A stretch of 64,000 nt of DNA from Hyphomicrobiales bacterium (lineage in GTDB: Bacteria > Pseudomonadota > Alphaproteobacteria > Rhizobiales > JANPGK01): the NCBI GenBank assembly GCA_031423895.1, contig JANPGK010000008.1, positions 278-64,277 of the forward strand, read 5' to 3'. Under the pieces are notes generated by a model. That model saw only the letters and a program-made list of their open reading frames with translations, had not been told where the DNA came from and did no database searches. Positions 1-63,516 of this stretch are shown in pieces. A program made the translations under genes and the position numbers. The first letter of the stretch is position 1, and every line of letters starts with the position of its first letter.

Positions 1-1422
1 AATTTTGGCGTGCCCGAGCTTAATTTATTGAAAGTGTATGAGGATGTGAAAGCGGCTGGGCGGGTGATTAATGCGCTGACGGCAAACGTGCCAGACAGCA
101 TCAAAGAATCTGGCCAATTCGAAGTCAACCGCTACCAATCCATGATGATTCGCGGTGCAAGCCGCGAGGCGATGGCGGCATTTGTGGCCAGCGGCGGGTT
201 TCAAACTACAGGCCGCCTGCGGGAAACGATCGAGAGTGCACAGCGTGCGGGCTATCAGCCCCCCACCTCCGAGATGTTAATGGTGATGCAGCTTGAAGGC
301 GCAGTCTATCATCGCTCGGAAGCGGGCGAAGTGACCATTCAATTCCCATGCCCAACACTGGGTGTGTGCGGCTACACACTGCAGCAGTTTAACGCGATTT
401 TTGGCGATAATGCTAAGAAAATTGCAGTGATGGATGTGCTTGAAAAAGGTGAAGATTATCGCAAAACCATGACGCAACTTGGCATGCAAATTGGGGCAGA
501 TCAAGCGAGCTATTTAGACATGTATTTCCGCACCATGCTACGCTGCGCATGGGAAGAACCCGAAGTCTTCCGCCAATTCATCACAAAATACCCTACGGCA
601 CTCACCTCAGCCGCAAATTTGATGGGGATTGAGTCGACTGCAATTCAGAATATTACGAATGAAGCGTTCCGCGCAGGTTCAACAAAAGCCAGCACTTTGG
701 CAGTTTATAATAATCAACTCAGCACCAATGCACTGTTTTTGGGTAGCCTTGCCAATTCTGTGACAGAAATCAAAATGATTGCTGGCACAGCCTACCGCGC
801 TTATTTGGGCAATGCAGCTGCACAACAAAAAGTGGCAGAGTTCACTGTGCTCACCAATGAGTTTTTGCGGTACGCGGGTGAGCACCCCAATGAAGTGAGC
901 CAAACCATGCTCAACCAATTTGCAGAATATGCAGGGCGTGTGGCAGATGGCGACATTGATGCAATTACCAGTTTGGGGGCAGATTTAGCATTTTTTACAG
1001 CTGTTACAAAAGCAATTAATGCTGGCGCGGCGGCTGGAAGAGTGAGTGCTGGGACTGCAAGTAAGATTATCAATGAAACGCTAACTACGACTATACAAAG
1101 AGGTTTTGATATTTCCAATTTGGAAAGTAAACTATCTATTTATTTGTTAAATCCATCACATCCAAAAAATCAATTCAAGGCAATTTGGTTTGAAAAGGCT
1201 CTGGGGTTTAATCAAAATAATTGGCAACAATTAGCAAATCAGCTATACTTTAATGAAAGTACTGCTGTTTTAAGAAAGACTACACAATACGGAACGGAAT
1301 ATAATCAAATTATTCCAATTACTGGAACAAATGGACGAGTAATAAATGTTGAGTTTGGATTCACAAAGTATGCAGATGGAAAAGTTACTTTTAATACGGG
1401 GATTCCAACAGAGAAAAAATGA
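1..1422 (+). CDS. C-terminal part of a large polymorphic-toxin-like protein (5' end outside window) with an exchangeable AT-rich C-terminal module
   Basis: Frame 1 is open from nt 1, so the gene starts upstream. The sequence turns visibly AT-rich from about nt 1060. The last ~110 aa contain KLSIYLLNPSHPKNQFKAIWFEKALGF, reminiscent of DUF6883-type C-terminal modules of polymorphic toxins. Immunity-like genes follow directly. Confidence 0.55.
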   Translation, partial: NFGVPELNLLKVYEDVKAAGRVINALTANVPDSIKESGQFEVNRYQSMMIRGASREAMAAFVASGGFQTTGRLRETIESAQRAGYQPPTSEMLMVMQLEGAVYHRSEAGEVTIQFPCPTLGVCGYTLQQFNAIFGDNAKKIAVMDVLEKGEDYRKTMTQLGMQIGADQASYLDMYFRTMLRCAWEEPEVFRQFITKYPTALTSAANLMGIESTAIQNITNEAFRAGSTKASTLAVYNNQLSTNALFLGSLANSVTEIKMIAGTAYRAYLGNAAAQQKVAEFTVLTNEFLRYAGEHPNEVSQTMLNQFAEYAGRVADGDIDAITSLGADLAFFTAVTKAINAGAAAGRVSAGTASKIINETLTTTIQRGFDISNLESKLSIYLLNPSHPKNQFKAIWFEKALGFNQNNWQQLANQLYFNESTAVLRKTTQYGTEYNQIIPITGTNGRVINVEFGFTKYADGKVTFNTGIPTEKK

Positions 1423-1697
1423 TGGAAAAGTTTAAGGAGAATGATTTAGCTAAACTTAAAATAGCGGTTCATGGAAAATCCCTCCAGGAACCTTATGATG
1501 ATATTTTAATACCAAAAGAAAGTGTAGGCGTAATATTATCTGTTTTTGATTATCCAAATTTACCACTGGCTTACTTATTAGAGTTTTATTTAAATGATGG
1601 GTATGTTTCTGCAACTGTAGAAGCAAAATACATTATTGGAACTTGTTATAAATCTACTAAAAATGATAAGGCAAATAGACGTAATAGTAAGAAATAA
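1419..1697 (+). CDS. putative cognate immunity protein (92 aa, possibly DUF4926-like)
   Basis: The ATG overlaps the toxin stop (ATGA at 1419-1422). Composition is the same AT-rich type. It is small and sits where a cognate immunity gene would. The family assignment comes only from a remembered pattern. Confidence 0.4.
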   Translation: MMEKFKENDLAKLKIAVHGKSLQEPYDDILIPKESVGVILSVFDYPNLPLAYLLEFYLNDGYVSATVEAKYIIGTCYKSTKNDKANRRNSKK

Positions 1698-1702
1698 ATG
1701 AT

Positions 1703-2161
1703 ATGAGCAAAATCGAAAAAATTCTTAATAATTTTTCTGAGGCAACAGGAACCAAATTGGTTGGTTGTAGCGATAAAGAAATTTTAGACATTGAAAAATA
1801 TTTTGGTGATAATTTACCTAAAGAATATGAGAATTTTATGCGAATTGCTGGGAAAAAAGCAGGTGAATTGTTCGTTGGTTCTGATGTTTTTTATCCAAAT
1901 GTATTAAATACAAAAAGAGGCACTAAAGATTTACTAGAAGAAAATAATCTTGTTGGAATTATACCAGATAATGTCTCTCCATTTTTTATGCATCAAGGTT
2001 ATATAATAAATTTCTTTCTTGATAATTCAGATGATCCTAAAGTTTATGAATTTATGGAAGGAGATGCTAAACCAAAACTTCTATATGATAGATTTTCAGA
2101 ATTTTTAAATGATAATATACAATCGTATATTAAACATTTGTCAATTTTAAAATCATCTTAA
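1703..2161 (+). CDS. SMI1/KNR4 (SUKH-1) family immunity-type protein
   Basis: 152 aa. LPKEYENFMRIAGKKAGELFVGSDVFY and the overall size match SUKH immunity proteins. It starts 5 nt after the previous ORF and is AT-rich. Confidence 0.65.
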   Translation: MSKIEKILNNFSEATGTKLVGCSDKEILDIEKYFGDNLPKEYENFMRIAGKKAGELFVGSDVFYPNVLNTKRGTKDLLEENNLVGIIPDNVSPFFMHQGYIINFFLDNSDDPKVYEFMEGDAKPKLLYDRFSEFLNDNIQSYIKHLSILKSS

Positions 2162-2390
2162 ATGCGCCAATTCCTCTCCCTCCTCCTCTCGCTCTTAATT
2201 CTTTTCAACAGCATCGTGAGCGCGCATGCGCTGCCGTGCGGGCTTTAGGCATGGTGTTCGCTGTCACCAATGGGGCGAAGCTGTTGGCGAGAATGAAGTG
2301 TGTCTATTTGCACCATAGGACACATCCCTTGCGCTTCTATGAGTATATTTGAACTATCATTCGCAGTTAATTCACATTGATTGGCGGAGA

Positions 2391-3323
2391 TCACCTCACC
2401 AACCCCTTGGCCTTTAATTTTTCGCAGGTGGACGTCTCAAGGCGTTTTGGTGTGAACCAGATATAGTCGAACAGTGGCGTTGTAAGGGATGTTTCGTTTG
2501 GGAGTTTCAAATACTCTTGCGGGTTTTTGCTGTCTTTAAGTTCAATAAATGCAACTGAAAGTGTGGTTTTGCCTGTGATGTGGGCGGGGATGGAGCGGTC
2601 TTTTCTCGCGTGGGCGCGGCCAGCGATGATGAGCGCAGGGGAATTTATTTGGGCGGCGCGGGCCATTGATTGATCACGCGCGATTTGCAGCTTTGCCAGC
2701 GGCGCAAGCGCTTCAGGTGTGAGCGTGTTGCAATGCGCGGTTTGCAGTGTGGCGTTCCATGAGTTGGTTTGTGAAGCAGTGATGTTTATTGGCGATTTCC
2801 CCGCGCGAATATCCTGCTGCTCTTGTGCTGGAATATCACCGCCAATGATTGGCCAGCGCGCGCGCATTGCGGCTTCAAACACGGGTTTATACAGGGTAAA
2901 ATCTGGCCAGCCAGAGGCGCGCCAATTCAGCGCTGCGCCCAAATTGGTGGCATCTTCAGGGCTGGATTTGATAAAATCGTCAGCGGTTTGTGTGTGGGTG
3001 CTGTCAAGCATTTCAAGTACAAGCGCGGCATTTTTGCCTTTTTCACTCAGCGCATTGATCAGAAACACCTGCCGGGCGTGATGGTCGGGGTTGCCATGGG
3101 TTTCGCCAATTATTGTTACATCAGCCGCCATAATTTTTGCAACCAATTCTTGTTGTGAGATGGCACTGCGCGCTTGGACATCCCAAATTGTGTTGAGGAG
3201 CGGATGGGCAGGCTCTGCATGAACTGGCGGCGTTTCAAGTGCGACAATAGATAGGTACAAGACCGCTAGGCGGCACATTGTGCGCAGCAGCAAAAAAAAC
3301 GGTTGCAGAAGTTGTTTATGCAT
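2391..3323 (-). CDS. ChaN-family (haem-binding, PF04187-like) periplasmic/lipoprotein
   Basis: Has an N-terminal signal sequence. TIIGETHGNPDHHARQVFLINAL and the downstream pattern are typical of ChaN-like iron-regulated proteins. Confidence 0.7.
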   Translation of the reverse strand: MHKQLLQPFFLLLRTMCRLAVLYLSIVALETPPVHAEPAHPLLNTIWDVQARSAISQQELVAKIMAADVTIIGETHGNPDHHARQVFLINALSEKGKNAALVLEMLDSTHTQTADDFIKSSPEDATNLGAALNWRASGWPDFTLYKPVFEAAMRARWPIIGGDIPAQEQQDIRAGKSPINITASQTNSWNATLQTAHCNTLTPEALAPLAKLQIARDQSMARAAQINSPALIIAGRAHARKDRSIPAHITGKTTLSVAFIELKDSKNPQEYLKLPNETSLTTPLFDYIWFTPKRLETSTCEKLKAKGLVR

Positions 3324-3373
3324 CTTAAGGTTTTATTAATATCTTCTAAAGTTGAAGTCAAGCTGAGTGCCAA

Positions 3374-5722
3374 ATGCGTAGAATGGTGATGTGGGGCGTG
3401 CTGTATTGCGTGATGTGCAGTTTTGCGCAGGCGCAAGCCATTCGCGTGGATGGCAGCACAGCCACCAGTGTGAGTGTGGCGCCAAGTGGCAAACTCACAG
3501 TGCAGATTGCTCCCAAAAATTCTGGCGGCGTCAGCCTCAATAAATATCAAAATTTTAGCGTGCCAAGTGCAGGTGCAACGCTCAATAATAGCGCGCAATC
3601 GGCCAAAGTGATTGTGAATGAGGTCACATCAACCGCGACATCAAGCATTAATGGTGTGCTCGATATTGCGGGTGCGCCTGCGCATGTGATTATTGCGAAC
3701 CCAAATGGCATATCAGTGAATGGTGGGCAATTTGTGGGGTTTGGTGGTGTGGCACTCACCACAGGCGTGCCAAATGTGAGCGGTGGCAATATTGCGCTTT
3801 CCACTACGCAAGGGCGTATTGTTATAGATGGTGCGGGGCTGACGAGCGATGGCGGGCGGCTCGATATCATCGCCAAAGATGTGGAGATTTCAGGGCCAGT
3901 GAATGCTGGTACTGGCGTATTGAACATCATCGCGGGGCATAGCATCCATAATTTTGATGCAAATGCGGCAGCAAGCGATTGGGTGAGTTATCAATCGCAA
4001 ATCCTGCCGTCTCGCACCGATATTGCTCTTACCATTTCTCAAGGCGCGGTGTTGAACGGTGGAGCAATTCGCCTGCGGGTGACAGATCAAGGCGCGGGCG
4101 TGCGCTGGGCGGGCAGTACAACAGCAGGTGCCCAAGGCGTGCGCGTGCAAAGCAATGGCGTGCTGACACTGGCAGGCGTGAATGTGCAAAGCGCAGGCAG
4201 TGTTGAATCGAGCGCCAAAGCAATTGCGACGGATGGCACAGCCCGCACAAATATCACCTCCGGCCAAAGCGGAGTGCGTTTGCTCAGCACATTGGGGGAT
4301 ATTGACCTGTCCAACATTGATATTGCTGCGGTGACGCGCGATGTGAGCAGCTTTGCGCCACTTGGCGGCATAAGTATTGAGGCGGCGCAAAATTTGCGGC
4401 TTGTGGGCACATCAGTTGCGCCTTCAACATTGAATGTGAGCGGTGATAGCCTTGCCCTCACAGCGCAAGGGGCGATGTTTATTGACTATGTGACAGCCAG
4501 TGCTGTTGGCACGCAATCGAGCATTATCAATGCTGGTGGTGTAGCAACTTTCAATAATTCCGCGCTGAATTTCAATGCGGTGTCGCTGTTGTCGCAAGGC
4601 GATGTAGCAGTAAATAGCACGAATGTAATCGCGCAAAATGGCGCGAATTTTACGGCGCCATCATTTGTCTTCACCTCTAACCCGCTTACACAAAATACAC
4701 TGCAAAGTGTTGGGGCGGGCGTAAGTATAGTGGCGCAAACCGGTGATATTCACAATAATGGCATGCTCATCAAAGGTTATGCAACAACCGCGGGGGATTC
4801 CAATAGTAAAGGCGGGCTGACCTTACTGGCGCCGAACGGCAATATTCTCAACACAAGTGTGAACGGCACTGCGCTTGGCACGTTAAGTGCGGATATTGAG
4901 GCATTAGTGTTAGAGGCTGGTGGGTATATTCGCAATTTATCAGGTAAGTTATTGTCTAATAATGCCATCACACTCACATCCACAGGTGAGGTGCGGAGTG
5001 AAACACTGATGCAAGGCACGGCAGATGTGCAAAATCGCACTAGCAGTTTGGCATTGGGGTTGGGCACAAAACAGGTCCATTCTGCATTTTACCCTGCACA
5101 ACTGATCGCTAATGAACGCGCCACAATTTCAGCTGGAGAAGATTTGACGATCAACGCGGCGTCACTCACCAATAGTGCTGGCATTGTGGAGGGGCGCAAA
5201 GTGAATATCACAACCACAGGTGATGTGCGCTCATCCAGCGTGGTGAGTGGTGATGCGTATTTTCGGCGGCGCTGCATGATCTTCTGCCGCGCAACAGGCC
5301 ACGCCAATATAGCACTGGTGGAAGGCAGGCTCACCTCGCAAGACACACTCACCATTTTGGCAGGCGGCACGATTGAAAGCCTTGGTGCAATCTTTATTGG
5401 TGGGCTCGATACGCAGTTAACGGCCGCGCATGTAAGGTTTGGCAGTGTGCTGTATCCATCGCTGATGTTCCGCCCTGCTGGTGTGCTTGGTGCGTTTCAT
5501 GGCAATGATGGGTGGGCGAGCTTGGCGTATAATGGCGGGTTTGTGTCGTCCACGCTCGGTGCAATCAACATCGCTTCGCCTGATATAGTTTATGAGGGCG
5601 TGAATGTCGCGGCGTTTGGCGGGGTGACAACAAGCTCAACAGTACTCAAGCGCACCGTGCCAATTGGTGCAGGGATTATCAAACCGCGCCCCATTGGCTT
5701 TTTTGCTGGGGTGCTGAAATGA
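3374..5722 (+). CDS. two-partner-secretion exoprotein (TpsA, filamentous-haemagglutinin-type N-terminal TPS domain), 782 aa
   Basis: Signal peptide ending SFAQAQA. TPS-domain motifs NKYQNFSVPSAGATLNN and HVIIANPNGISVNGGQF. The remainder is beta-helix-like and rich in G/A/S/T/N/V. The stop overlaps the tpsB start (ATGA 5719-5722). Confidence 0.85.
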   Translation: MRRMVMWGVLYCVMCSFAQAQAIRVDGSTATSVSVAPSGKLTVQIAPKNSGGVSLNKYQNFSVPSAGATLNNSAQSAKVIVNEVTSTATSSINGVLDIAGAPAHVIIANPNGISVNGGQFVGFGGVALTTGVPNVSGGNIALSTTQGRIVIDGAGLTSDGGRLDIIAKDVEISGPVNAGTGVLNIIAGHSIHNFDANAAASDWVSYQSQILPSRTDIALTISQGAVLNGGAIRLRVTDQGAGVRWAGSTTAGAQGVRVQSNGVLTLAGVNVQSAGSVESSAKAIATDGTARTNITSGQSGVRLLSTLGDIDLSNIDIAAVTRDVSSFAPLGGISIEAAQNLRLVGTSVAPSTLNVSGDSLALTAQGAMFIDYVTASAVGTQSSIINAGGVATFNNSALNFNAVSLLSQGDVAVNSTNVIAQNGANFTAPSFVFTSNPLTQNTLQSVGAGVSIVAQTGDIHNNGMLIKGYATTAGDSNSKGGLTLLAPNGNILNTSVNGTALGTLSADIEALVLEAGGYIRNLSGKLLSNNAITLTSTGEVRSETLMQGTADVQNRTSSLALGLGTKQVHSAFYPAQLIANERATISAGEDLTINAASLTNSAGIVEGRKVNITTTGDVRSSSVVSGDAYFRRRCMIFCRATGHANIALVEGRLTSQDTLTILAGGTIESLGAIFIGGLDTQLTAAHVRFGSVLYPSLMFRPAGVLGAFHGNDGWASLAYNGGFVSSTLGAINIASPDIVYEGVNVAAFGGVTTSSTVLKRTVPIGAGIIKPRPIGFFAGVLK

Positions 5723-7407
5723 GAATTTCATTTGCGCATTTAAGTGTATTTTGCTTTTTCTTGGGTGTCAGCCCTGTTTTGGCCCAACAAGATCTCGGTC
5801 TCGATTTGCTCAAGGCGCAAACACAGGCGCAGCGTTTGCAACATTTAGAGCGTGGGCAACAGGGCAATGCACTGGCGGGTGAGCAAGCCCCCACTGCCAA
5901 AAGCCCAGTGTGCTTTGATATTCACCACATTAATATTACGGGTGTAAATGCGCTGCCAGCGAGCCAAGTGGCGGAATTTGCCAAACCCTATCGTGGTACA
6001 TGCATGGGGCAGTTTGAGATTGAAGCGCTGATCACGAGTGTTAAAAATGCCTATATCAAGCGCGGCTTAATCACCACCCAATTGGTTGTGCCGCCGCAAG
6101 ATTTAAAATCGGGCACGCTCAACATGCAGGTGGTGGAAGGCATGGTGGAGCGGTTGGAATATTACCGCGTGTGGGATGCTAAAAATACCGCTCGCCCTGC
6201 CACACGATTGGCGCGCGACATAGCCTTTCCCTATGTGGAGGGGTATCAGCTCAATTTGCGTGATATTGAGCAAGGCATTGCACAAATCAATCGCAATTCT
6301 GCCTCGCAAGCCACGGTGGATATTTTGCCTGGCACGCAAGTGGGCACTAGCGTGGTGCGGGTGATTGAGCGCAAAACGGCACGGTTTCACCCCAGTTTTG
6401 GCTTTGATACGCGCGGCAGCAAAGATGTGGGGCATAATCGCATAAAACTTGGCTTTGAGATGCAAGATGCGATTTACCCCTTTGATGCGTGGAATTTTAC
6501 CTATTCTGGCACGCGTGCCTCCAACGCGTTGGCGGGGTCAGTGAGTTTGCCTCTGGGGTATTTCACTCTGCAGGCCAATGGTTCCTATTCCGAGCAAGAC
6601 AAGGCTGTTTCTGTGCTGGCCAATAGTTTTTCGCAAACGGGCACGGGTTCGGTGGCGATTGATCGGGTGATGTATCGCGACCAAAACATGATTTTCCACC
6701 TCAATCAATCTATGAACAGTTATTGGGGGCAAAGCAGCATCAATGCGGCGCGGCTGACACCACAACGCTTTTCATGGCTGCGCTCTAGTGCGAATGTGGA
6801 ATATTTTTTGGAGAAAACCAAATTTGTGGCCGATGTTGGGGTGAGTTATGGCCTGCCGCAAATGGCGGGTGGCTCGGCCGAGTTTGGTGGGGATCAATTC
6901 ACACCACGCGCAAATTTTAAAAAATTGGATGCAGCACTCGTGGCCATTCACAGTTTTGGCGAGAATTGACAGGCGGTTGCGCAGCTGAATGGTCAATATG
7001 CCCCGCGTGTGCTGTTCAGCCCACAAGCCTTAGGCCTCACCAGTTTTGAGGCCGTGCGTGGGTTCAGGGACATTTCACTGCAAGGTGATGTGGGCGGCTA
7101 TGGGCGTGTGGAGGTGCAAAAGAGTTTTGCGCTGATGCAGCCACTGGAAAAAGGAAAATCACCTGATTTATTATATCAAACGCAAGCTAAACTCGGCCAA
7201 AGCGCATCTCTATTTGGTTTTGTTGATGGCGGCGTGTTGCGACGCTATTCCACCCATTCAGGCGATCAATTGCTTTCCACTGGGCTAGGTGCACGCCTTA
7301 ATGGCGCCAACTTAAGCCTAGATGCCGTGCTGGCCGTGCCACTTATTCACCCTACTACGTTTAAGGGGAAACCCGAGCTTACCATGTCACTCACCTATAA
7401 ATTCTAA
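5719..7407 (+). pseudogene. ShlB/FhaC/HecB-family TpsB outer-membrane transporter interrupted by one in-frame TGA (6967-6969)
   Basis: POTRA region CFDIHHINITGVNALP...LNMQVVEGMVERLEY, and barrel motif LFSPQALGLTSFEAVRGF after the stop. Track ORFs 5719-6969 and 7009-7407 share frame 1. Together they give about 560 codons, a normal TpsB length. Confidence 0.75.
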
Positions 7408-7418
7408 AGGAGCATCCC

Positions 7419-8219
7419 ATGAACCGCATTCTTATCACAACATTACTGGCAACTGTGTGCTTCAGCGCAGCTTTTGCAACGCCACTGCAAGATGGCCTGA
7501 AAGCCATTGATGCCAAGGATTACCCCAAAGCCAGCAAGCTATTGGCAGAAGCTTTTGAAAAGGGCGAGCCAGATGCCGCATTTTATATGGGGCGATTGTT
7601 AGAGGTGGGGATTGATGGCAAAGCCGACCCACAAGCGGCTGTGGCAATGTATGCGGCGGGCGCTGCCAAAAACAGTGCGATGGCCAAAAACCGCCTTGGC
7701 GTTCTGCACATGGAAGGCACAGGTGTGTTGCAAGATTATGAGCAAGGCAAAAAGCTCATTTGTGAAGCCGCAGAAGCGGGTGACGCCAATGCGCAGTTCA
7801 ATTGTGGTGCGCTCTATGATCAAGGCAAAGGCGTGACCAAAGACACAAAAAAAGCCATGGATTGGTATAAAAAATCAGCTGAAAAAGGCAATATTGCGGC
7901 CAAAAATAGCCTCGGAATTATTTATGCTGATGGTGCGGAAAAAGACACCACAAAGGCATTCCAAGTCTGGCAGCAAACCGCCGCTGTTGGCAATCCATTT
8001 GGTTTATTTCGTTTGGGAGATGCCTATGGGCGCGGTGTTGGCACTCCTAAAGACCTTGTGAAGGCGCATGCATATCTCAATCTCGCTTCTGCACGCGGTG
8101 TGAATGAAGCACAGGCCATTCGTGCGGAGCTTGAAAAGCAACTCACACCTGAACAAATTACCCAAGCCCAGCAAATCGCCCGCAGCTGGAAACCAGTGGA
8201 GGATAAGGGAAAGAAGTGA
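7419..8219 (+). CDS. secreted Sel1-repeat (TPR-like) protein
   Basis: Signal peptide MNRILITTLLATVCFSAAFA. Contains repeated Sel1 units (AFYMGRLLEVG, NRLGVLHMEGTGV, QFNCGALYDQGKGV, AMDWYKKSAEKGN, NSLGIIYADG). Confidence 0.85.
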   Translation: MNRILITTLLATVCFSAAFATPLQDGLKAIDAKDYPKASKLLAEAFEKGEPDAAFYMGRLLEVGIDGKADPQAAVAMYAAGAAKNSAMAKNRLGVLHMEGTGVLQDYEQGKKLICEAAEAGDANAQFNCGALYDQGKGVTKDTKKAMDWYKKSAEKGNIAAKNSLGIIYADGAEKDTTKAFQVWQQTAAVGNPFGLFRLGDAYGRGVGTPKDLVKAHAYLNLASARGVNEAQAIRAELEKQLTPEQITQAQQIARSWKPVEDKGKK

Positions 8220-17950: not shown

Positions 17951-19495
17951 ATGAACACATCGCGCCCCAACACACCGCCTAAGAATTTTTCCAATAAAAA
18001 CGCTCAACAGGGCGGAGCCAAATCTGAAGGTGGAGGGCGGTTTATGGGCAATGCGGGTGCGCCGCCGTTTCAAAAGCGGGCGAAAATCCGCCCCAATGCG
18101 CGCTCTATCGCGGCCGATATTTTTGAAAAAGTGTTTGAAGATGGCACCCCGCTCGATGCCGCCACCGACCAAGCGCAAATGCTCAACACGCTTGAAGCGC
18201 GCGACCGCGCCTTTTGCATGGCCATTGTGCGCGCCAGTGTGCGCCATGCGGGGTGGTTGAACCTTGCATTAAAAGCACAATTGAAGCGCCCGCTGCCCAA
18301 AAATGCCACCTATGCCAAGGCGTTGCTCATCACCGCACTTGCGCAAAAGCTGATTTTGAACGTGCCCATGCACGCGGTGGGCAGTGAAACGCTGAAGCTT
18401 GCGGGGGGCAACCAACGCACGCAGCATTTAACGGGGCTCATGACCGCCATATTGCGCAATGCTGAATTTACCAGCGATTTTGCGCTCGACAATTGGCCGG
18501 GGTGGCTTGGCCATGGCTGGCGCTCGGCCTATGGCGCTGCTGCCGCACAAGAAATTGCTGCGGCCAGTATGCAGGAGCCCGCGCTTGATATTATGCCAAA
18601 ATCGCACCCGCAAGAATGGGCCGAAAAACTGGGTGGCACGTTGTTGCCCAATGGCACCATTCGCGTGGCAAGCGCCGGCAGTGTGGAGATGTTGGAAGGC
18701 TTTCATTCGGGCGATTGGTGGGTGCAAGACGCTGCCGCCACCATCCCCGTGTTGATGCTGGGCGATATTGCGGGCAAAACCGCGCTGGATATGTGCGCTG
18801 CCCCAGGTGGCAAAACCGCGCAAATGTGCGCAGCAGGTGCCATTGTCACAGCGGTGGATAAAGACAAAAAACGCATGGCGCGCTTGCAACAAAACATGGC
18901 GCGGCTTGGCTTCGCCCCCACCTGCGTGGTGAATAATGTGGTGCGGTATAAGCCTGAAATTAAAATTCAAGAAAAATCTGGCTCCCCCCTTGCGGGGGAG
19001 CTGTCGAGCCAATCCTTAATTGGTGAGACTGAGGGGGGTATTTTTCCTATTTCACAGAAAGAAAACCCCTCCCCCTACCCCCTCCCGCAAGGGGAGGGGA
19101 GGATTTTGTTCGACGCTATCCTTCTCGACGCCCCATGTTCAGCCACGGGCACATTGCGCAAGCGGCCCGATGTGGCGTGGCACCGCCGACCTGCCGAAAT
19201 CACCAGCCTCGCCACTTTGCAGGGCGATTTGATCGACCACGCCTTCACGCTGCTGAAGGATGGCGGCACGCTGGTCTATGCTGTGTGTTCGCTCGAACCA
19301 GCTGAGGGGGAAGCTGTGATTGCGGCATTTTTAGAGCGCACCCCCACCGCCGTAGTGATGCAGGATTGGGCGCAGGGCGCGCTGACAGAATTTAAAACGG
19401 AAGCGGGCTATATGCGCACATTCCCCCAAAATTGGGCGGAGCACGGCGGCATGGATGGCTTTTTCGCGGTGAAACTTATAAAGCATGTTGAATAA
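17951..19495 (+). CDS. rsmB: 16S rRNA (cytosine-C5)-methyltransferase RsmB/Sun family, carrying an in-frame repeat-element insertion
   Basis: Motifs DMCAAPGGKT, FDAILLDAPCSATG and LVYAVCSLEPAEGE. About 41 extra codons (SPLAGELSSQSLIGETEGGIFPISQKENPSPYPLPQGEGR) lie between them. Confidence 0.9.
   Translation: MNTSRPNTPPKNFSNKNAQQGGAKSEGGGRFMGNAGAPPFQKRAKIRPNARSIAADIFEKVFEDGTPLDAATDQAQMLNTLEARDRAFCMAIVRASVRHAGWLNLALKAQLKRPLPKNATYAKALLITALAQKLILNVPMHAVGSETLKLAGGNQRTQHLTGLMTAILRNAEFTSDFALDNWPGWLGHGWRSAYGAAAAQEIAAASMQEPALDIMPKSHPQEWAEKLGGTLLPNGTIRVASAGSVEMLEGFHSGDWWVQDAAATIPVLMLGDIAGKTALDMCAAPGGKTAQMCAAGAIVTAVDKDKKRMARLQQNMARLGFAPTCVVNNVVRYKPEIKIQEKSGSPLAGELSSQSLIGETEGGIFPISQKENPSPYPLPQGEGRILFDAILLDAPCSATGTLRKRPDVAWHRRPAEITSLATLQGDLIDHAFTLLKDGGTLVYAVCSLEPAEGEAVIAAFLERTPTAVVMQDWAQGALTEFKTEAGYMRTFPQNWAEHGGMDGFFAVKLIKHVE
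18982..19102. repeat. hairpin-terminated MITE/REP-like element, family A copy 1 (inside rsmB)
   Basis: Terminal GC hairpins CTCCCCCCTTGCGGGGGAG and CCCCCTCCCGCAAGGGGAGGGG are inverted copies of each other. The element is near-identical to 41045-41164. Confidence 0.85.
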
Positions 19496-29086: not shown

Positions 29087-29107
29087 TGGGTGTTCCTTTG
29101 GGTTTGA

Positions 29108-29220
29108 CTTCCCCTCTCCCCTTGCGGGAGAGGGTGCCTCGAAGAGGTGGGTGAGGGGGATTCTTAAATTTTCACCCTCATCCGGCCTGCGGCCACCTTC
29201 TCCCGTCAAGGGAGAAGGAT
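29108..29220. repeat. triple-hairpin MITE/REP-like element, family B copy 1 (degenerate), between efp and suhB
   Basis: Contains CCCCTCTCCCCTTGCGGGAGAGGG, a decayed GGGTGAGGG...CACCCTCATCC middle hairpin, and CCTTCTCCCGTCAAGGGAGAAGG. Homologous to 49210-49327. Confidence 0.8.
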
Positions 29221-32287: not shown

Positions 32288-32364
32288 GAGTGTATTTTAT
32301 ACGTAAAACATTAATATAGGCTTGAATTCCATCAATGACGCTTGGCTATTAGCTATCAGAATTA

Positions 32365-32408
32365 CGTGGATAGATGTTAGAAATTGGCGCGCCCGAAAGG
32401 ATTCGAAC
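32365..32408. repeat. 44-bp direct repeat of the tRNA-Arg 3' end plus 20 nt of downstream flank (second copy 32446-32489)
   Basis: CGTGGATAGATGTTAGAAATTGGCGCGCCCGAAAGGATTCGAAC occurs identically at 32365-32408 and 32446-32489, separated by 37 unrelated nt. Confidence 0.85.
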
Positions 32409-32465
32409 TTCCCCGCGCGTGAGCGCAAACTAATAAATAGAGGTTCGTGGATAGATGTTAGAAAT

Positions 32466-32542
32466 TGGCGCGCCCGAAAGGATTCGAACCTCTGACCCCC
32501 AGATTCGTAGTCTGGTGCTCTATCCAGCTGAGCTACGGGCGC
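32466..32542 (-). tRNA. tRNA-Arg (anticodon ACG), 77 nt with encoded CCA
   Basis: The reverse complement is GCGCCCGTAGCTCAGCTGGATAGAGCACCAGACTACGAATCTGGGGGTCAGAGGTTCGAATCCTTTCGGGCGCGCCA. It folds as a cloverleaf with anticodon loop CT-ACG-AA. Confidence 0.95.
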
Positions 32543-33652: not shown

Positions 33653-33663
33653 TGTTTATGGAC

Positions 33664-35438
<1,775 letters not shown>

Positions 35439-35620: not shown

Positions 35621-35682
35621 GGGGGGGTATTGTCATCAATCCGTATGCGGGCGCAGCCCGTTTCTTCCCCGCCAGCGCACAG

Positions 35683-35705
35683 AAAAACGGCCTCAAACGA
35701 GGCCG
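35683..35705 (-). terminator. rho-independent terminator of the 35741-36220 gene
   Basis: The minus strand reads CGGCCTC-gttt-GAGGCCG TTTTT. It sits within an ~80-nt flank that is duplicated at 36327-36405. Confidence 0.65.
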
Positions 35706-35740
35706 CATAAGGAATGATGAAGCTGTTTTATGTGGCGTTG

Positions 35741-36220
35741 TTAGGCCTGTGGGGTAGCACTATCCGTGCTAGAATTGGAGCGCTTAGAAAACAATCCTGA
35801 AACAGCGGCAACATATGCAAGTGCACCAAAACTGAGTAATTTCATGTATACTTTGGATGACAGAAAAATTTTTCCGATGTCTGTATAAAATGCTTTACGT
35901 TGTGGATTTGCGCCATCAATTGCACGTTTCCATTCTGCAGGGCTGTTTATGTCCCATATGCCTTGCAAAAATTTAGCATGCTCCGATTTATACATTGTAT
36001 GGCTTAAATTTATAGAAGTTTTTAAACTCAGTTTAAAATCGCCTATGTGCAAAGGGTCAATTTGATTAAGGGTATGGTGTGAGTGCTGTAAAATAGCATT
36101 TTCATTTACAATGGGTGTTTTATCAAAATCAACATATGAACACATTTGATTCACAAATTGTTTCATATAATTGAGGCCATCTGCTGCGGTATTAAATTTA
36201 ATAGTCATAATAATCACCAT
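35741..36220 (-). CDS. small C-terminally TM-anchored hypothetical protein, tandem paralogue 1
   Basis: 159 aa, AT-rich. It begins MVIIMTIKF and ends SKVYMKLLSFGALAYVAAVSGLFSKRSNSSTDSATPQA. Roughly 50 percent identical by eye to the 36413-36880 product. Confidence 0.55.
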   Translation of the reverse strand: MVIIMTIKFNTAADGLNYMKQFVNQMCSYVDFDKTPIVNENAILQHSHHTLNQIDPLHIGDFKLSLKTSINLSHTMYKSEHAKFLQGIWDINSPAEWKRAIDGANPQRKAFYTDIGKIFLSSKVYMKLLSFGALAYVAAVSGLFSKRSNSSTDSATPQA

Positions 36221-36370
36221 TTATTATTTACTTGAATAAGTATTGCTTCTATAATTTTCTATTGTAATAGTCAATATATTATTGGTAATTAGAGTGTTTC
36301 ATTTCCAATTTCCAATTGGGCAAATAATCCGTATGCGGGGGCTGCCCATTTTACACCCCTTAGCGCACAG

Positions 36371-36393
36371 AAAAACGGCCACAAACGCGGCCG
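36371..36393 (-). terminator. rho-independent terminator of the 36413-36880 gene
   Basis: The minus strand reads CGGCCGC-gtttgt-GGCCG TTTTT. It is homologous to the terminator at 35683-35705. Confidence 0.55.
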
Positions 36394-36412
36394 TATAAGA
36401 AATGATTATTTC

Positions 36413-36880
36413 TTAAGCCTGAGGTATGCGAGTTTCAGGTTGTTTTGAAAAAAGCCCTGAAACAGCGGCAACACATGCAAGCGCACCAATGCCTAGTAAT
36501 TTTAAATATACTTTGGACGACAAGAAAAACTTACCTATTTCAATTAAACTCGGTTTGTGTGATGCAGGCGCGGCTTCAATTGCTCGTTTCCAATCCGCTG
36601 GGCTATTGACATCCCAAACTTCTTTAAGATATTTAGCATTAAATTTTTTATTTACTTGTTTAGAAGCCTCCACGGAGGCTTTTAAATTGTTTTTGAATAG
36701 CACTAATTGATCAGAGTCAATTTCGTTAAGTGTATGTTTGGCATGCTGTAAAATTGCATCTTCGCTAACAATCGGATTTTTATTAAAGTTCACATAATCT
36801 TCCATTTGCATGATAAAATTTGTAACATACTGTATACCTTGTTCAGATGTAGTAAAACGTATAGCCATTATAATCACCAT
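36413..36880 (-). CDS. small C-terminally TM-anchored hypothetical protein, tandem paralogue 2
   Basis: 155 aa. It begins MVIIMAIRF and ends SKVYLKLLGIGALACVAAVSGLFSKQPETRIPQA. Confidence 0.55.
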   Translation of the reverse strand: MVIIMAIRFTTSEQGIQYVTNFIMQMEDYVNFNKNPIVSEDAILQHAKHTLNEIDSDQLVLFKNNLKASVEASKQVNKKFNAKYLKEVWDVNSPADWKRAIEAAPASHKPSLIEIGKFFLSSKVYLKLLGIGALACVAAVSGLFSKQPETRIPQA

Positions 36881-40994: not shown

Positions 40995-41044
40995 GTGTTG
41001 AAGTTTTTATAAATTCAGTTGAATATGCGAAGGCGCTCTTTTTG

Positions 41045-41164
41045 CTCCCCCCTTGCGGGGAAGCTGTCGAGCCGATCCTATATTGGCGAGACTGAGGGCG
41101 GTAATCTTTTGATGACCGATAGAAAGAAAACCCCTCCCCCTACCCCCTCCCGCAAGGGGAGGGG
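41045..41164. repeat. hairpin-terminated MITE/REP-like element, family A copy 2 (intergenic)
   Basis: Aligns along its whole length with 18982-19102: GCTCCCCCCTTGCGGGG.AGCTGTCGAGCC.ATCC...GAGACTGAGGG...AGAAAGAAAACCCCTCCCCCTACCCCCTCCCGCAAGGGGAGGGGA. Confidence 0.85.
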
Positions 41165-41213
41165 AAAGTAAGATTCTACCCTTGCGGGTAAATTATCTGA
41201 TTGGATTCCCCCT

Positions 41214-49202: not shown

Positions 49203-49209
49203 GACTCAC

Positions 49210-49327
49210 TTCCCCTCTCCCTTGACGGGAGAGGGTACCACGCAGTGGGGGATGAGGGTGAATATACAGGCCAATTTTCACCCTCATCCGTCGCTGCGCG
49301 CCACCTTCTCCCGTCAAGGGAGAAGGG
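49210..49327. repeat. triple-hairpin MITE/REP-like element, family B copy 2, between hisB and the DUF2628 gene
   Basis: Contains CCCCTCTCCCTTGACGGGAGAGGG, a perfect 13-bp middle hairpin GGATGAGGGTGAA...TTCACCCTCATCC, and CCTTCTCCCGTCAAGGGAGAAGG. Confidence 0.85.
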
Positions 49328-49346
49328 TAAGCATCAAGGAACTCAC

Positions 49347-56271: not shown

Positions 56272-56360
56272 GTCATTCTGAACGCGCGTAAGCGCAGTGA
56301 AGAATCTCCTTGAGGTTGAGCACAATTGGCGGGAGATCCTTCGCCTTCGCTCAGGATGAC
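56272..56360. repeat. GTCAT...ATGAC palindromic REP/MITE-like element, family C copy 1
   Basis: GTCATTCTGAACGCGCGTAAGCGCAGTGAAGAATCTCCTTGAGG...GGGAGATCCTTCGCCTTCGCTCAGGATGAC. Homologous to 58437-58523 and, inverted, to 60574-60653. Confidence 0.85.
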
Positions 56361-58436: not shown

Positions 58437-58523
58437 GTCATTCTGAGTAAGCGCAGCGCAGTGCAGGATCTCCTTAAATGTGAGCTCAATCTGTAGGAGA
58501 TCCTTCGCGACGCTCAGGATGAC
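58437..58523. repeat. family C element copy 2, immediately upstream of ffh
   Basis: GTCATTCTGAGTAAGCGCAGCGCAGTGCAGGATCTCCTTAAATG...GGAGATCCTTCGCGACGCTCAGGATGAC. Confidence 0.85.
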
Positions 58524-60549: not shown

Positions 60550-61901
60550 GTGTGGAGGATTCTACCATAGGTCGTCATCCTGAACGTAGTGAAGGATCTT
60601 CTGCCGATTGGGCTCCACTTGAGGGAGATTCTTCGGCGATGCCTCAGAATGACAGCCTCGTCGATGTCATCACCTTCGGCTGTCGCTTAAACACCTATGA
60701 GTCGAATGTGATGCAGCGTGAGGCGATTGCCGCTGGCGCTCAAAATACCGTGATTGTGAACACATGCGCGGTCACGAACGAGGCTGTGCGCCAAGCCAAG
60801 CAAACCATTCGCAAGTTGCGGCGCGAGCGGCCAGATGTGAAAATTGTGGTGACAGGCTGCGCCGCGCAAATTGAAACCAACGATTTTGCGGCCATGGGCG
60901 AGATTGACCTGCTGCTGGGCAATGCCGAGAAAATGGAGCGATCCTCCTATACGCCGCTTTCCATGGCCATTCCCGCAACTGAGCGCGTGCGGGTGAACGA
61001 CATTATGGAAGTGCGCGAAACGGCGGCGCATATGTTGGAAAGTGCTGGTGGGCGTGCGCGCGCCTTTGTGCAAGTGCAAAATGGGTGCGACCATCGCTGC
61101 ACGTTTTGCATCATTCCGTTTGGCCGTGGCCCTGCGCGCTCGGTGCCGATTGCCGAAGCGGTGCGCGAAATTCAAAATTTGGTGGAATCTGGAACTTTAG
61201 AGGTCGTGCTCACAGGGGTGGATCTCACCGCTTATGGGCAGGATTTGCCAGGTACACCGCGCCTTGGCACATTGGTGCAGGCCATTTTGAAGCATGTGCC
61301 GCAGCTGCAACGCTTGCGAATTTCCTCCATCGATGTGGTGGAGATGGACGACGCATTGGTGGAGGCCATTGTGGGGGAACCCCGCGTGATGCCGCATGTG
61401 CATGTGTCGCTGCAGGCCGGCGATAATATGATTTTGAAGCGGATGAAGCGCCGCCACACCCGCGAAGATGCCATCACGCTGTGCAATGATTTGCTCGCCA
61501 AGCGGCCAGAATTGGTGCTGGGTGCGGATCTCATCGCAGGCTTCCCCACTGAAACAGATGAAATGTTTGAAAACACGCTGGCGTGCGTGGACGAATGTAA
61601 CCTCACATTGTTGCACGTGTTTCCGTTTTCACCGCGTAAGGGCACGCCCGCTGCCCGCATGCCGCAAGTGCACGGCACAATTGTGAAAGCGCGCGCGGCA
61701 CGATTGCGCGAAAAGGCCGACGAGCGCCTGCTGGCCTATATGCAACCTCAAGTTGGAACGGCGCATGAGATTTTGGTGGAGCGCCCACATTTTGGCCGCA
61801 TTAATAGTTTTATCCCCGTGAAATTACTTGAAATTGCACCGCGTGGCACGCTCATTCACCGCAGAATCATAGGCGTAGATAACAATCAACTGGTTGCATA
61901 G
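60546..61901 (+). CDS. mtaB: MiaB-like tRNA methylthiotransferase MtaB (radical SAM), with a 5' region containing a family C repeat
   Basis: VITFGCRLNTYESNVM, the radical-SAM motif GCDHRCTFCIIP and a TRAM-like C-terminus. The start is either the ATG at 60546 (ATGA overlap with the dapF stop) or the ATG at 60639 inside the repeat. Confidence 0.85.
   Translation: MSVEDSTIGRHPERSEGSSADWAPLEGDSSAMPQNDSLVDVITFGCRLNTYESNVMQREAIAAGAQNTVIVNTCAVTNEAVRQAKQTIRKLRRERPDVKIVVTGCAAQIETNDFAAMGEIDLLLGNAEKMERSSYTPLSMAIPATERVRVNDIMEVRETAAHMLESAGGRARAFVQVQNGCDHRCTFCIIPFGRGPARSVPIAEAVREIQNLVESGTLEVVLTGVDLTAYGQDLPGTPRLGTLVQAILKHVPQLQRLRISSIDVVEMDDALVEAIVGEPRVMPHVHVSLQAGDNMILKRMKRRHTREDAITLCNDLLAKRPELVLGADLIAGFPTETDEMFENTLACVDECNLTLLHVFPFSPRKGTPAARMPQVHGTIVKARAARLREKADERLLAYMQPQVGTAHEILVERPHFGRINSFIPVKLLEIAPRGTLIHRRIIGVDNNQLVA
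60574..60653. repeat. family C element copy 3 (inverted orientation) within the 5' end of the mtaB ORF
   Basis: GTCATCCTGAACGTAGTGAAGGATCTTCTGCCGATTGGGCTCCACTTGAGGGAGATTCTTCGGCGATGCCTCAGAATGAC. Confidence 0.8.
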
Positions 61902-62511: not shown

Positions 62512-63516
62512 ATGGTTATGTGGATGGTGCGGAGCAGCGGGGGGCGCATTACTAATGCTTTTATTGAAAGAGGATTAGTCGCTATCGGTTGGGATGCATT
62601 GCCCATGAATATTGTTGATTACAAATCACGTGAGGATATTCGAAAAGCGGTTTCATTGTCTTGGCCAGACATGAAAGAAGGTGCGATTAGTACGTCTGTA
62701 GGGCAACTCTTAAAATTTGCGAAAACTCTAAAACGTGGAGATTCAGTAGTGACATATGATTCTGCTGCACGTCAGTATTATATTGGAGAAATTATAGGTG
62801 ATCACGAGTATCATAGTAATGCTGAAAATGGCTTTACAAATACACGATCTGTCAAATGGGATCCTAAACCTATTAGCCGTGATAATTTAAGCAATACTAC
62901 AAAGAATTCTTTAGGCAGCATTCTTACAATATTTAAGGTTCCAGAATTATCGGAGCAAGAATTATTAGCGAAAAATTCAGGTCAGTTAATTCAGGAAATT
63001 AAAAATAAGAAAAATGATGAAATTGATGAGTCTTCAATTGAATTGCAGATCAACAGTGTGCAGGAGAAAGCATTTGAACTTATTAAAGATAAGGTCATTG
63101 CATTAAGCTGGGAAGATATGCAGGAGCTTGTTGCAGGCATATTGCGTGGCATGGGCTATAAAACACGCATTTCGCCTTCTGGATCGGATCGTGGAAAAGA
63201 TATTATTGCCTCGCCAGATGGATTGGGATTTGAACCACCTCGAATAGTGGTTGAGGTTAAGCATCGCAAGGGGGCTATGGGTTCGCAGGAAATTCGCAGT
63301 TTTTTAGGTGGACGTCATAAAGATGATAAAGGTTTGTACGTAAGTACAGGTGGTTTTACTAAAGAGGCCAAATATGAAGCAGAACGCGCAAATATTCCCC
63401 TGACGCTTATAGATATTGATGATTTAGTGAGTATACTGCTCGAAAATTATGAAGCTATGGATACGAACATGAAAACCCTCATTCCAATAAGTCGTATATA
63501 TTGGCCAGCTGATTAA
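62512..63516 (+). CDS. Mrr-like type IV restriction endonuclease with an unassigned N-terminal domain
   Basis: The C-terminal Mrr_cat pattern is WEDMQELVAGILRGMGYKTRISPSGSDRGKDIIA...IVVEVKHRKGAMGSQEIRSFLG...GLYVSTGGFTKEA. The N-terminal ~110 aa (GRITNAFIERGLVAIGW...) differ from the usual Mrr_N. AT-rich. Confidence 0.8.
   Translation: MVMWMVRSSGGRITNAFIERGLVAIGWDALPMNIVDYKSREDIRKAVSLSWPDMKEGAISTSVGQLLKFAKTLKRGDSVVTYDSAARQYYIGEIIGDHEYHSNAENGFTNTRSVKWDPKPISRDNLSNTTKNSLGSILTIFKVPELSEQELLAKNSGQLIQEIKNKKNDEIDESSIELQINSVQEKAFELIKDKVIALSWEDMQELVAGILRGMGYKTRISPSGSDRGKDIIASPDGLGFEPPRIVVEVKHRKGAMGSQEIRSFLGGRHKDDKGLYVSTGGFTKEAKYEAERANIPLTLIDIDDLVSILLENYEAMDTNMKTLIPISRIYWPAD

Follow-up and report, generated by a model that had tools for sequence, protein, structure and literature searches.

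A palindromic repeat read in frame within an alphaproteobacterial rsmB gene and its possible connection to DUF559 genes

Results

An uninterrupted rsmB gene carries a palindromic repeat

In this study we analysed 64,000 nt of DNA from a Hyphomicrobiales bacterium (contig JANPGK010000008.1, positions 278 to 64,277 of the forward strand; hereafter the window, to whose first letter positions refer unless a locus in another genome is named), in which the gene for RsmB, the 16S rRNA m5C967 methyltransferase, encloses what appears to be a dispersed palindromic repeat. The GroEL of the host organism is closest to that of Hyphomicrobiales (84-85% identity). The rsmB open reading frame (ORF; 17951-19495, plus strand; 57% GC) runs for 514 codons from its first ATG with neither a stop nor a frameshift, so that the gene is not disrupted, a possibility left standing by an earlier reading of the DNA made from its letters alone (the sequence-only reading). 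The public annotation places the start at 18044, giving a protein of 483 residues, and the NCBI protein P0001 (483 aa) is a 100% match, insert included. Pfam recognises Methyltr_RsmB-F (PF01189; 4e-46, matched in two stretches and broken at 383) and NusB (PF01029) in the ORF, and the protein has the features that define RsmB: a NusB-like N-terminal domain and an RsmB/F catalytic domain with motif I (AAPGGKT) and the cysteines of motif IV (DAPCS) and motif VI (CS). Every invariant column of the aligned family is kept, including the catalytic cysteines of motif IV and motif VI.

The core of the insert spans 120 nt, or 40 codons (18981-19100, plus strand), as delimited by alignment with a second copy in the window, six-frame translation, a gap in the orthologues and low confidence in a structural model, all described below. 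Both of its hairpin ends (CTCCCCCCTTGCGGGGGAG, 18982-19000, and CCCCTCCCGCAAGGGGAGGGG, 19079-19099) fall inside the single ORF, and its translation, GSPLAGELSSQSLIGETEGGIFPISQKENPSPYPLPQGEGR, is positioned between CAAPGGKT and FDAILLDAPCS, with the junction-spanning peptide ...IQEKSGSPLAGELSSQSLIGETEGG... The sequence-only reading had placed a hairpin-ended element of about 120 nt at exactly this point of RsmB, and both the element and its location are borne out by translation and alignment. Neither terminal pattern would be expected by chance (expectation 0.00, from 100 shuffles of the window). On the plus strand the element has a left terminal hairpin, CTCCCCCC-TTGC-GGGGGAG (18982-19000), followed by an internal hairpin, GTCGAGCCAATCC..GGTGAGAC (19003-19029), which was located by folding and is specific to the subfamily of this lineage. 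On the right lies a terminal module (19066-19102) made up of a C-box, CCCCTCCCCC, the bases TA, a C, the hairpin CCCCTCCC-GCAA-GGGGAGGGG and a tail of 3 nt. The two end hairpins complement each other and hence form terminal inverted repeats, and folding of the rsmB copy as RNA gives four hairpins at -64.4 kcal/mol (z = -3.5). The element has a GC content of 58% with hairpins built of C-runs and G-runs, and only one of its six frames is free of stops, which is the frame in use.

A second copy lies between genes

The second copy (41044-41165, plus strand; 122 nt), identified by alignment with the rsmB copy, is situated downstream of the terminator of a gene for a major facilitator superfamily (MFS) transporter and 48 nt upstream of the gene for an AMP-binding enzyme. 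An intergenic copy at this place had already been picked out by the sequence-only reading, but its description as near-identical is too strong: the copies share 87% identity and differ at 16 positions, and only the right 45 nt are 100% identical. The second copy carries no sequence flanking the insert in rsmB, is able to pair end to end and, at 122 nt, would cause a frameshift if it lay within a gene. No direct repeat of 3 bp or more adjoins either copy in the window. On the minus strand (19066-19099 and 41131-41164) the module reads as a hairpin, GTAG, GGGGAGGGG and TTTTCTTTCT, a terminator-like site antisense to rsmB that is kept in both copies and that holds four G-tracts (GGGAGGGGGTAGGGGGAGGGG) fitting a G-quadruplex motif.

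The insert is absent from RsmB orthologues and modelled as a disordered loop

A residue-by-residue alignment with nine orthologues shows a 48-column gap at the insert in all nine, and the consensus and conserved columns of a 50-sequence alignment agree with its absence from the 49 orthologues. The nearest RsmB, P0002 from a Logan assembly (run SRR33557406; 56-61% identity, the best among 5.8 billion proteins), is also without the insert, and a protein search with the 41-residue insert peptide gave no candidates. The sequence-only reading looked to such an alignment for the borders of the insertion and any target-site duplication; the gap is 48 residues wide, and a duplication was not found. 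It had also held that the element is read through and adds about 41 residues. The absence of stops stands, while the length has to be revised to 40 residues from the shared repeat out of 48 that are extra relative to the orthologues. The remaining eight are accounted for by an AT-rich stretch (18950-18980, plus strand; 26% GC) that encodes KPEIKIQEKS, is extra in the alignment with orthologues and is absent from the second copy, together with two codons (IL) on the right. The AT-rich stretch may represent the target of the insertion, part of a longer element or a loop peculiar to the lineage. Since AAAATC (18973-18978) is the inverted complement of GATTTT (19102-19107) and lengthens the palindrome, and an element in another genome (locus L109) has similar ends with the flanks AAAATCTC/GAGATTTT, the true insert may be 135 nt, though the second copy lacks these flanks.

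In a HMMER comparison with E. coli RsmB (1SQF) the alignment is interrupted between residues 299 and 302 of the chain and between residues 294 and 341 of the query, where the Pfam match is split as well, leaving about 16 residues in E. coli where this protein has about 61; the sequence-only estimate of some 20 residues for the E. coli linker was thus about right. An AlphaFold model built with 50 homologues has a mean predicted local distance difference test score (pLDDT) of 90.8 and a predicted template modelling score (pTM) of 0.86, and its best structural match is again E. coli Fmu/RsmB, 1SQF (target-normalised template modelling (TM) score 0.86). The pLDDT drops below 50 in a single segment, residues 310-349 (483-aa numbering), which the repeat encodes; it is devoid of secondary structure and sits between the strands 293-296 and 356-362, upstream of DAPCS. 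Modelling, which the sequence-only reading had suggested as a way of placing the insert, therefore assigns it to a loop, and because that loop is disordered and joins two strands the RsmB fold is predicted to survive. We infer that the enzyme is still functional.

The right-hand module recurs in many phyla

The right-end 21-mer of the element was used to scan a genome collection for exact matches, and 120 loci containing 150 modules were fetched. Among the matches listed, the 21-mer occurs at more than 119 loci in many phyla, with taxa that include Inquilinus, Acetobacteraceae, Rhizomicrobium, Nitrosovibrio, Geomonas and other Desulfobacterota, Planctomycetota and a Helicobacter isolate. BLAST showed the 34-37 nt at the right end of the rsmB element to be 100% identical in many such loci. 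The left and central parts are lineage-specific, the portion at 19003-19029 being unmatched in the 120 loci from other genomes. When 145 copies are profiled, a 38-nt module emerges, consisting of a C-box, CCCC(T/C)CCCCCC, two variable bases, a C, the hairpin CCCCTCCC-GCAA-GGGGAGGGG and GAG, beyond which the sequence is random. The 21-mer is often found in plus/minus pairs 40-160 nt apart, and at 14 loci a pair of modules in facing orientation, separated by 10-90 nt, gives ORF-less palindromes of 77-161 nt with no consistent target-site duplication; no direct repeat of at least 3 bp adjoins any of these 14 elements. The rsmB element combines a canonical right module with a variant left hairpin.

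Searches of Rfam at gathering and at permissive thresholds did not bring the element near any family cut-off, a full-text literature search for the module sequences found no paper, and blastn of the element against plasmids returned a single weak match, probably because of low-complexity masking. On its sequence features, we class the element as a palindromic repeat like REPs (repetitive extragenic palindromes) and their doublets, the REPINs (REP doublets forming hairpins), or like MITEs, transposable elements of the miniature inverted-repeat type. That it is a dispersed repeat and not an ancestral part of rsmB, as the sequence-only reading proposed, is supported by the orthologues without the insert, the second, intergenic copy and the presence of the right 34-37 nt in unrelated genomes.

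Modules lie in frame in other genes

In-frame cases among the fetched loci were counted as confirmed when Pfam domains lay on both sides of the module. By this measure a module splits HHH_6 in a DnaE2 (L118), a whole palindrome is contained in domain III of a MutS (L099), and modules are located in the lipoyl/E3-binding linker of an E2 acyltransferase (L038), in a Methyltransf_28 enzyme (L020), in an APH kinase (L102) and in a DNA methylase ORF of Helicobacter (L022). In other candidates the modules turned out to lie upstream of the true start codons.

The Helicobacter frame (Helicobacter sp. 15-1451; 4903-7998 of its locus) is stop-free for 1032 codons and brings together an N-terminal region and several GC-rich peptides encoded by modules with two domains, a complete DUF559 domain (residues 581-685) and one of the N6_N4 DNA methylase type. 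In this low-GC genome a DUF559 cassette appears to have been inserted in frame together with its modules.

Similar hairpins flank DUF559 genes

Three of the 120 module-selected loci have a DUF559 ORF beside modules. At one of them (L114) this ORF exactly fills the spacer of a module pair, and the flanking module is only a few bases different from the right module of the rsmB element; at another (L028) a DUF559 ORF lies between two modules and adjoins uvrB; the third is the Helicobacter methylase frame (L022), into which DUF559 and modules are built in frame. DUF559 is the only ORF that we found bracketed by modules, and no transposase-encoding parent, such as the parent insertion sequence (IS) of a MITE, was seen. 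Because loci selected for their modules carry a risk of circular reasoning, we restarted from the DUF559 protein and compiled a module-independent set by tblastn against plasmids and chromids (39 records, of which 16 loci from diverse taxa were fetched).

Matched inverted repeats of 22-76 nt flank the DUF559 gene at 9 of these 16 loci, with scores of 16-64 where shuffled controls did not exceed 14, and at least one hairpin with C/T arms lies within 200 nt of the gene at 14. Hairpin density is 3.6 per kb at the DUF559 loci vs 0.09 per kb in the window. The flanks share an architecture of a hairpin, a joint of 2-4 nt (often xTAG) and a box in which the arm of the hairpin recurs, present in Sphingomonas, Sinorhizobium, Azospirillum, Deinococcus, Synechocystis and Pseudanabaena, and on one side only at E. 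coli ycjD and in Neisseria and Photobacterium. One hairpin beside a Deinococcus DUF559 gene (L124) has exactly the sequence of the rsmB element's left hairpin. DUF559 units are lodged between conserved neighbours (sufB/sufC, paaD/paaZ), and for two of them empty sites were found in relatives, the filled and empty paaD-paaZ sequences being too diverged for exact ends to be read from their alignment. A literature search found no paper linking DUF559 to such repeats.

The sufB-sufC junction was observed in several states. It holds an inverted-repeat-bounded DUF559 unit in Sphingomonas parapaucimobilis (L130 and L139), a GIY-YIG nuclease gene instead in Azospirillum lipoferum 4B (H49), and nothing in other Azospirillum, Sinorhizobium and Paracoccus, and it appears to be a preferred site of small selfish nuclease genes. 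The 50 kb surrounding the Sphingomonas unit contain no more copies of its inverted repeat.

Other repeats and genes of the window

Three more palindromic repeat families are present in the window. The second family, of about 105-120 nt, has one copy at 29107-29210 (minus strand) and another at 49208-49330, one in the spacer between efp and an inositol monophosphatase gene and the other between hisB (IGPD) and a DUF2628 gene; its terminal hairpins, CCTTCTCCC-TTGA-CGGGAGAAGG and CTCTCCC-GCAA-GGGGAGAG, and inner boxes, GATGAGGGTGA and TCACCCTCATC, reproduce the architecture of the rsmB element. The third type is a near-perfect palindrome of 72 nt (CGTCATCCTCGGGCTTGACCCGAGGATCTACT / AGTAGATGGTCGGGTCAAGCCCGACCATGACG; 33663-33734) in the groES-groEL spacer of a highly expressed operon. 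The fourth is a 54-nt hairpin repeat in three copies that are 70-80% identical (56291-56344, 58455-58508 and 60583-60636), with the form ..AGAATCTCC..GGAGATCCTTCGC.. flanked by GTCATTCTGA / TCAGGATGAC, near ffh and dapF.

Two further duplications were noted. A 54-nt sequence is repeated at 32358-32411 and 32439-32492 (93% identity, 81 nt apart) and includes the 3' part of tRNA-Arg(ACG) (32466-32542, minus strand), possibly as a scar left when something integrated at this tRNA gene. The tandem duplicates 35638-35979 and 36326-36639 (72-83% nucleotide identity) comprise two adjacent ORFs with their upstream regions (35741-36220 and 36413-36880, minus strand; about 155 aa each, with no Pfam match). 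The window also contains a two-partner secretion (TPS) locus (10-6969), in which genes for a TPS-domain exoprotein (3374-5722) and a ShlB/FhaC-type transporter (5719-6969) are preceded by genes for a DUF6883 protein and a SUKH/SMI1 immunity-like protein, and a Mrr-type restriction endonuclease gene at 62512-63516.

Discussion

We consider it highly probable that the segment within rsmB is a non-autonomous, hairpin-ended repeat that was inserted into the gene and is tolerated in frame, with its mobility most likely provided in trans and DUF559 as the leading candidate for the enzyme. According to this model a repeat of the REP/REPIN or MITE kind would have inserted into the loop that joins the motif I-III half of the S-adenosylmethionine (SAM)-binding fold to the DAPCS strand. 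It would have persisted because its length is a multiple of three, it landed in its only stop-free frame, and the Pro/Gly/Ser/Glu-rich peptide forms a disordered loop; length, frame and modelled disorder are all observed for the rsmB copy. The manner of its spread we infer from the wider family. Modules in inverted pairs make up the ORF-less palindromes, and pairs built in the same way bracket DUF559 endonuclease genes. Mobility would therefore most likely come from an enzyme supplied in trans, with DUF559 in the lead, and since target-site duplications are absent, a hairpin-directed or break-repair (homing-like) route would be a better fit than a DDE transposase.

A number of observations weigh against this model. 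The association with DUF559 is a correlation, and the modules may be targets or co-accumulating sequences and not substrates; the window itself contains no DUF559, RAYT (REP-associated tyrosine transposase) or other transposase gene (47 ORFs scanned, with tblastn for DUF559). The evidence on this subfamily comes from only two copies, neither with a detectable target-site duplication, two subfamily-specific DNA patterns (one for the internal hairpin part) had no match in JGI metagenomes, and the source genome is not among the 21-mer matches listed. No polymorphic empty rsmB site was found, the nearest relative being about 60% identical, and eight of the extra residues lie outside the shared 120 nt. 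Regarding the protein, RsmB deviates at 15 of 117 columns that are conserved at 90% or more, including an exchange of the motif III acid to N329 (514-aa form; about 18935-18940), 12 residues upstream of the insert, where at least 90% of the 49 homologues have D. Finally, the sense strand at 19079-19109 has a terminator-like hairpin followed by AGGAUUUUGU, which resembles a weak terminator.

Some of these observations could be accommodated if the 40-48 residues were an ancestral or lineage-specific expansion of the RsmB loop and the intergenic copy a secondary fragment derived from rsmB. Such an origin would suit the eight of 48 residues that the repeat leaves unexplained and the distance of the nearest RsmB, which leaves no close relative by which to date the event. 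It is nevertheless very improbable: intergenic repeats identical to the right 34-37 nt occur in dozens of unrelated genomes, and the segment shares their complete palindromic anatomy; the aligned orthologues lack the segment, and the intergenic copy carries no rsmB flank. We regard it as scarcely credible that the insert arose in assembly, as a chimera induced by the repeat in a draft or metagenome-assembled genome. The element is indeed repeated and its source, of 129,872 bp, resembles a draft contig, but rsmB continues without a break and in the same frame on either side, and the 16 differences from the second copy show that the rsmB copy is not a collapsed pile of reads. The changes in the protein raise a different question, whether rsmB is becoming a pseudogene that puts up with the insert only through being dispensable, and whose product is inactive or is truncated by the terminator-like hairpin. 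The gene is non-essential in E. coli, the count of deviating columns is the second highest among the 50 sequences, and the hairpin at 19079-19109 has a U-rich tail; with the D to N exchange at motif III, these deviations mean that activity may be reduced or lost. Against such decay, the 514-codon frame is intact, the invariant columns and both catalytic cysteines are retained, the deviations are mostly conservative with six of them common to P0002, and the core is modelled at a pLDDT above 90, so we judge it distinctly unlikely.

Another source of mobility can also be considered. A RAYT (a Y1 HUH transposase) could have moved the element as a classical REP/REPIN, or a DDE transposase could have moved it as a MITE, with DUF559 a bystander that accumulates in the same intergenic sites. 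Two inverted hairpin units with a spacer and no target-site duplication are REPIN-like anatomy, GTAG adjoins the hairpin on the minus strand of the rsmB copy, and REPs within genes are documented (PMC3733652). However, the tetranucleotide is variable across the 145 copies, the window contains neither a RAYT nor a transposase, and matched module pairs bracket DUF559 genes from E. coli to Deinococcus and the cyanobacteria far above background, which makes this explanation rather doubtful in our view. As it stands the association is compatible either with DUF559 acting on the modules or with DUF559 genes homing into palindromes, and the rsmB insert may have arisen as a shrunken version of DUF559 selfish elements or be a site into which they home. 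This raises the broader possibility, which we advance only tentatively and hold to be somewhat short of even odds, that hairpin-plus-box modules are the termini of very widespread selfish elements built round small DUF559 (Vsr-like PD-(D/E)XK) genes, from E. coli ycjD to Deinococcus, cyanobacteria and alphaproteobacteria. The ORF-less palindromes, the rsmB insert among them, would then be miniature derivatives or homing targets. Being stop-free in most frames and encoding Pro/Gly-rich linkers, the modules would repeatedly remodel proteins (RsmB, DnaE2, MutS, E2 and kinases) across phyla. As far as we could find, such a class of selfish elements is undescribed.

Insertions of REPs, MITEs and Rickettsia palindromic elements (RPEs) in frame have already been published, and the rsmB case is a further example of modest novelty. 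RPEs are found in frame inside housekeeping genes, where the encoded peptide is predicted to be compatible with the host fold (PMC10969869), and RPE-1 occurs in truB (PMC3733652). Di Nocera et al. (2013) described in-frame REPs in several species, hosted by DnaE2, UvrA and RNA-modifying enzymes, and the same authors class RPE-4 and RPE-6 as REPs (PMC3733652). In-frame MITE fusions include QMITE1 of Coxiella, intragenic ERIC (enterobacterial repetitive intergenic consensus) sequences, the MITEs of Anabaena and Correia elements (PMC10969869, PMC5896051). The rsmB insert adds to the examples of repeats that generate protein length variation, and it would be a clean case of a selfish palindromic repeat surviving in an enzyme as what is modelled to be a disordered surface loop. 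In annotation, it should not be mistaken for a frameshift or a new domain. Of greater interest is the wider pattern of a near-unchanged 38-nt module in many phyla, in frame in several repair and RNA-modifying enzymes, with pairs of like architecture around DUF559 genes. DUF559 is a large domain family with few characterised members, and we know of no activity for the module-flanked DUF559 proteins; should the link prove causal, it would provide a candidate role for DUF559 and an enzyme partner for a common class of bacterial repeats.

The parallel with RPEs drawn by the sequence-only reading is apt as a description of how the element works, since both are dispersed palindromic repeats of about 100-150 bp found between genes and in frame in protein genes. 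The accompanying suggestion that this behaviour is new to the lineage is weaker, because REPs and MITEs in reading frames are documented in non-rickettsial bacteria, alphaproteobacteria included (PMC3733652, PMC10969869, PMC5896051). Membership of the RPEs themselves is unlikely given the 58% GC content and the C-run and G-run hairpins; unlike the Rickettsia elements, which belong to one genus, the terminal module extends across phyla, and no sequence relationship is apparent.

The resemblance to REPs and REPINs goes further, in that the units are short, GC-rich imperfect palindromes that are dispersed, mostly extragenic, often arranged as inverted doublets and without target-site duplication, and the classes of host protein that they decorate are the same here (DnaE2, MutS and RsmB, that is, repair and RNA modification). 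They differ from REPs in an additional C-box that repeats the hairpin arm and in that the partner gene seen in this analysis is DUF559 and not a Y1 transposase, and they may also differ in lacking a head tetranucleotide conserved as GTAG or CGTC. At the head position the rsmB copy has GTAG (minus strand, between hairpin and G-box), and the 145 copies vary at the two central positions (A/T/G/C 57/37/29/22 and A/G/C 85/33/19). With bacterial MITEs the rsmB element has in common that it is apparently non-autonomous, bears terminal inverted repeats and can be read within host ORFs, while MITEs normally have target-site duplications and an identifiable IS parent, neither of which was seen for it.

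To our knowledge, no hairpin inverted repeats have been described around the genes of EDxHD homing endonucleases, the remaining system with which comparison can be made. The known EDxHD enzymes are found in introns or inteins and have NUMOD DNA-binding domains, unlike the DUF559 units. DUF559 nonetheless belongs to the Vsr-like PD-(D/E)XK group together with the EDxHD homing endonuclease I-Bth0305I (PMC3424549, PMC3239194, PMC9403480), and in this shared nuclease fold, as in being small intruders with empty sites in relatives, the DUF559 units resemble homing endonuclease genes.

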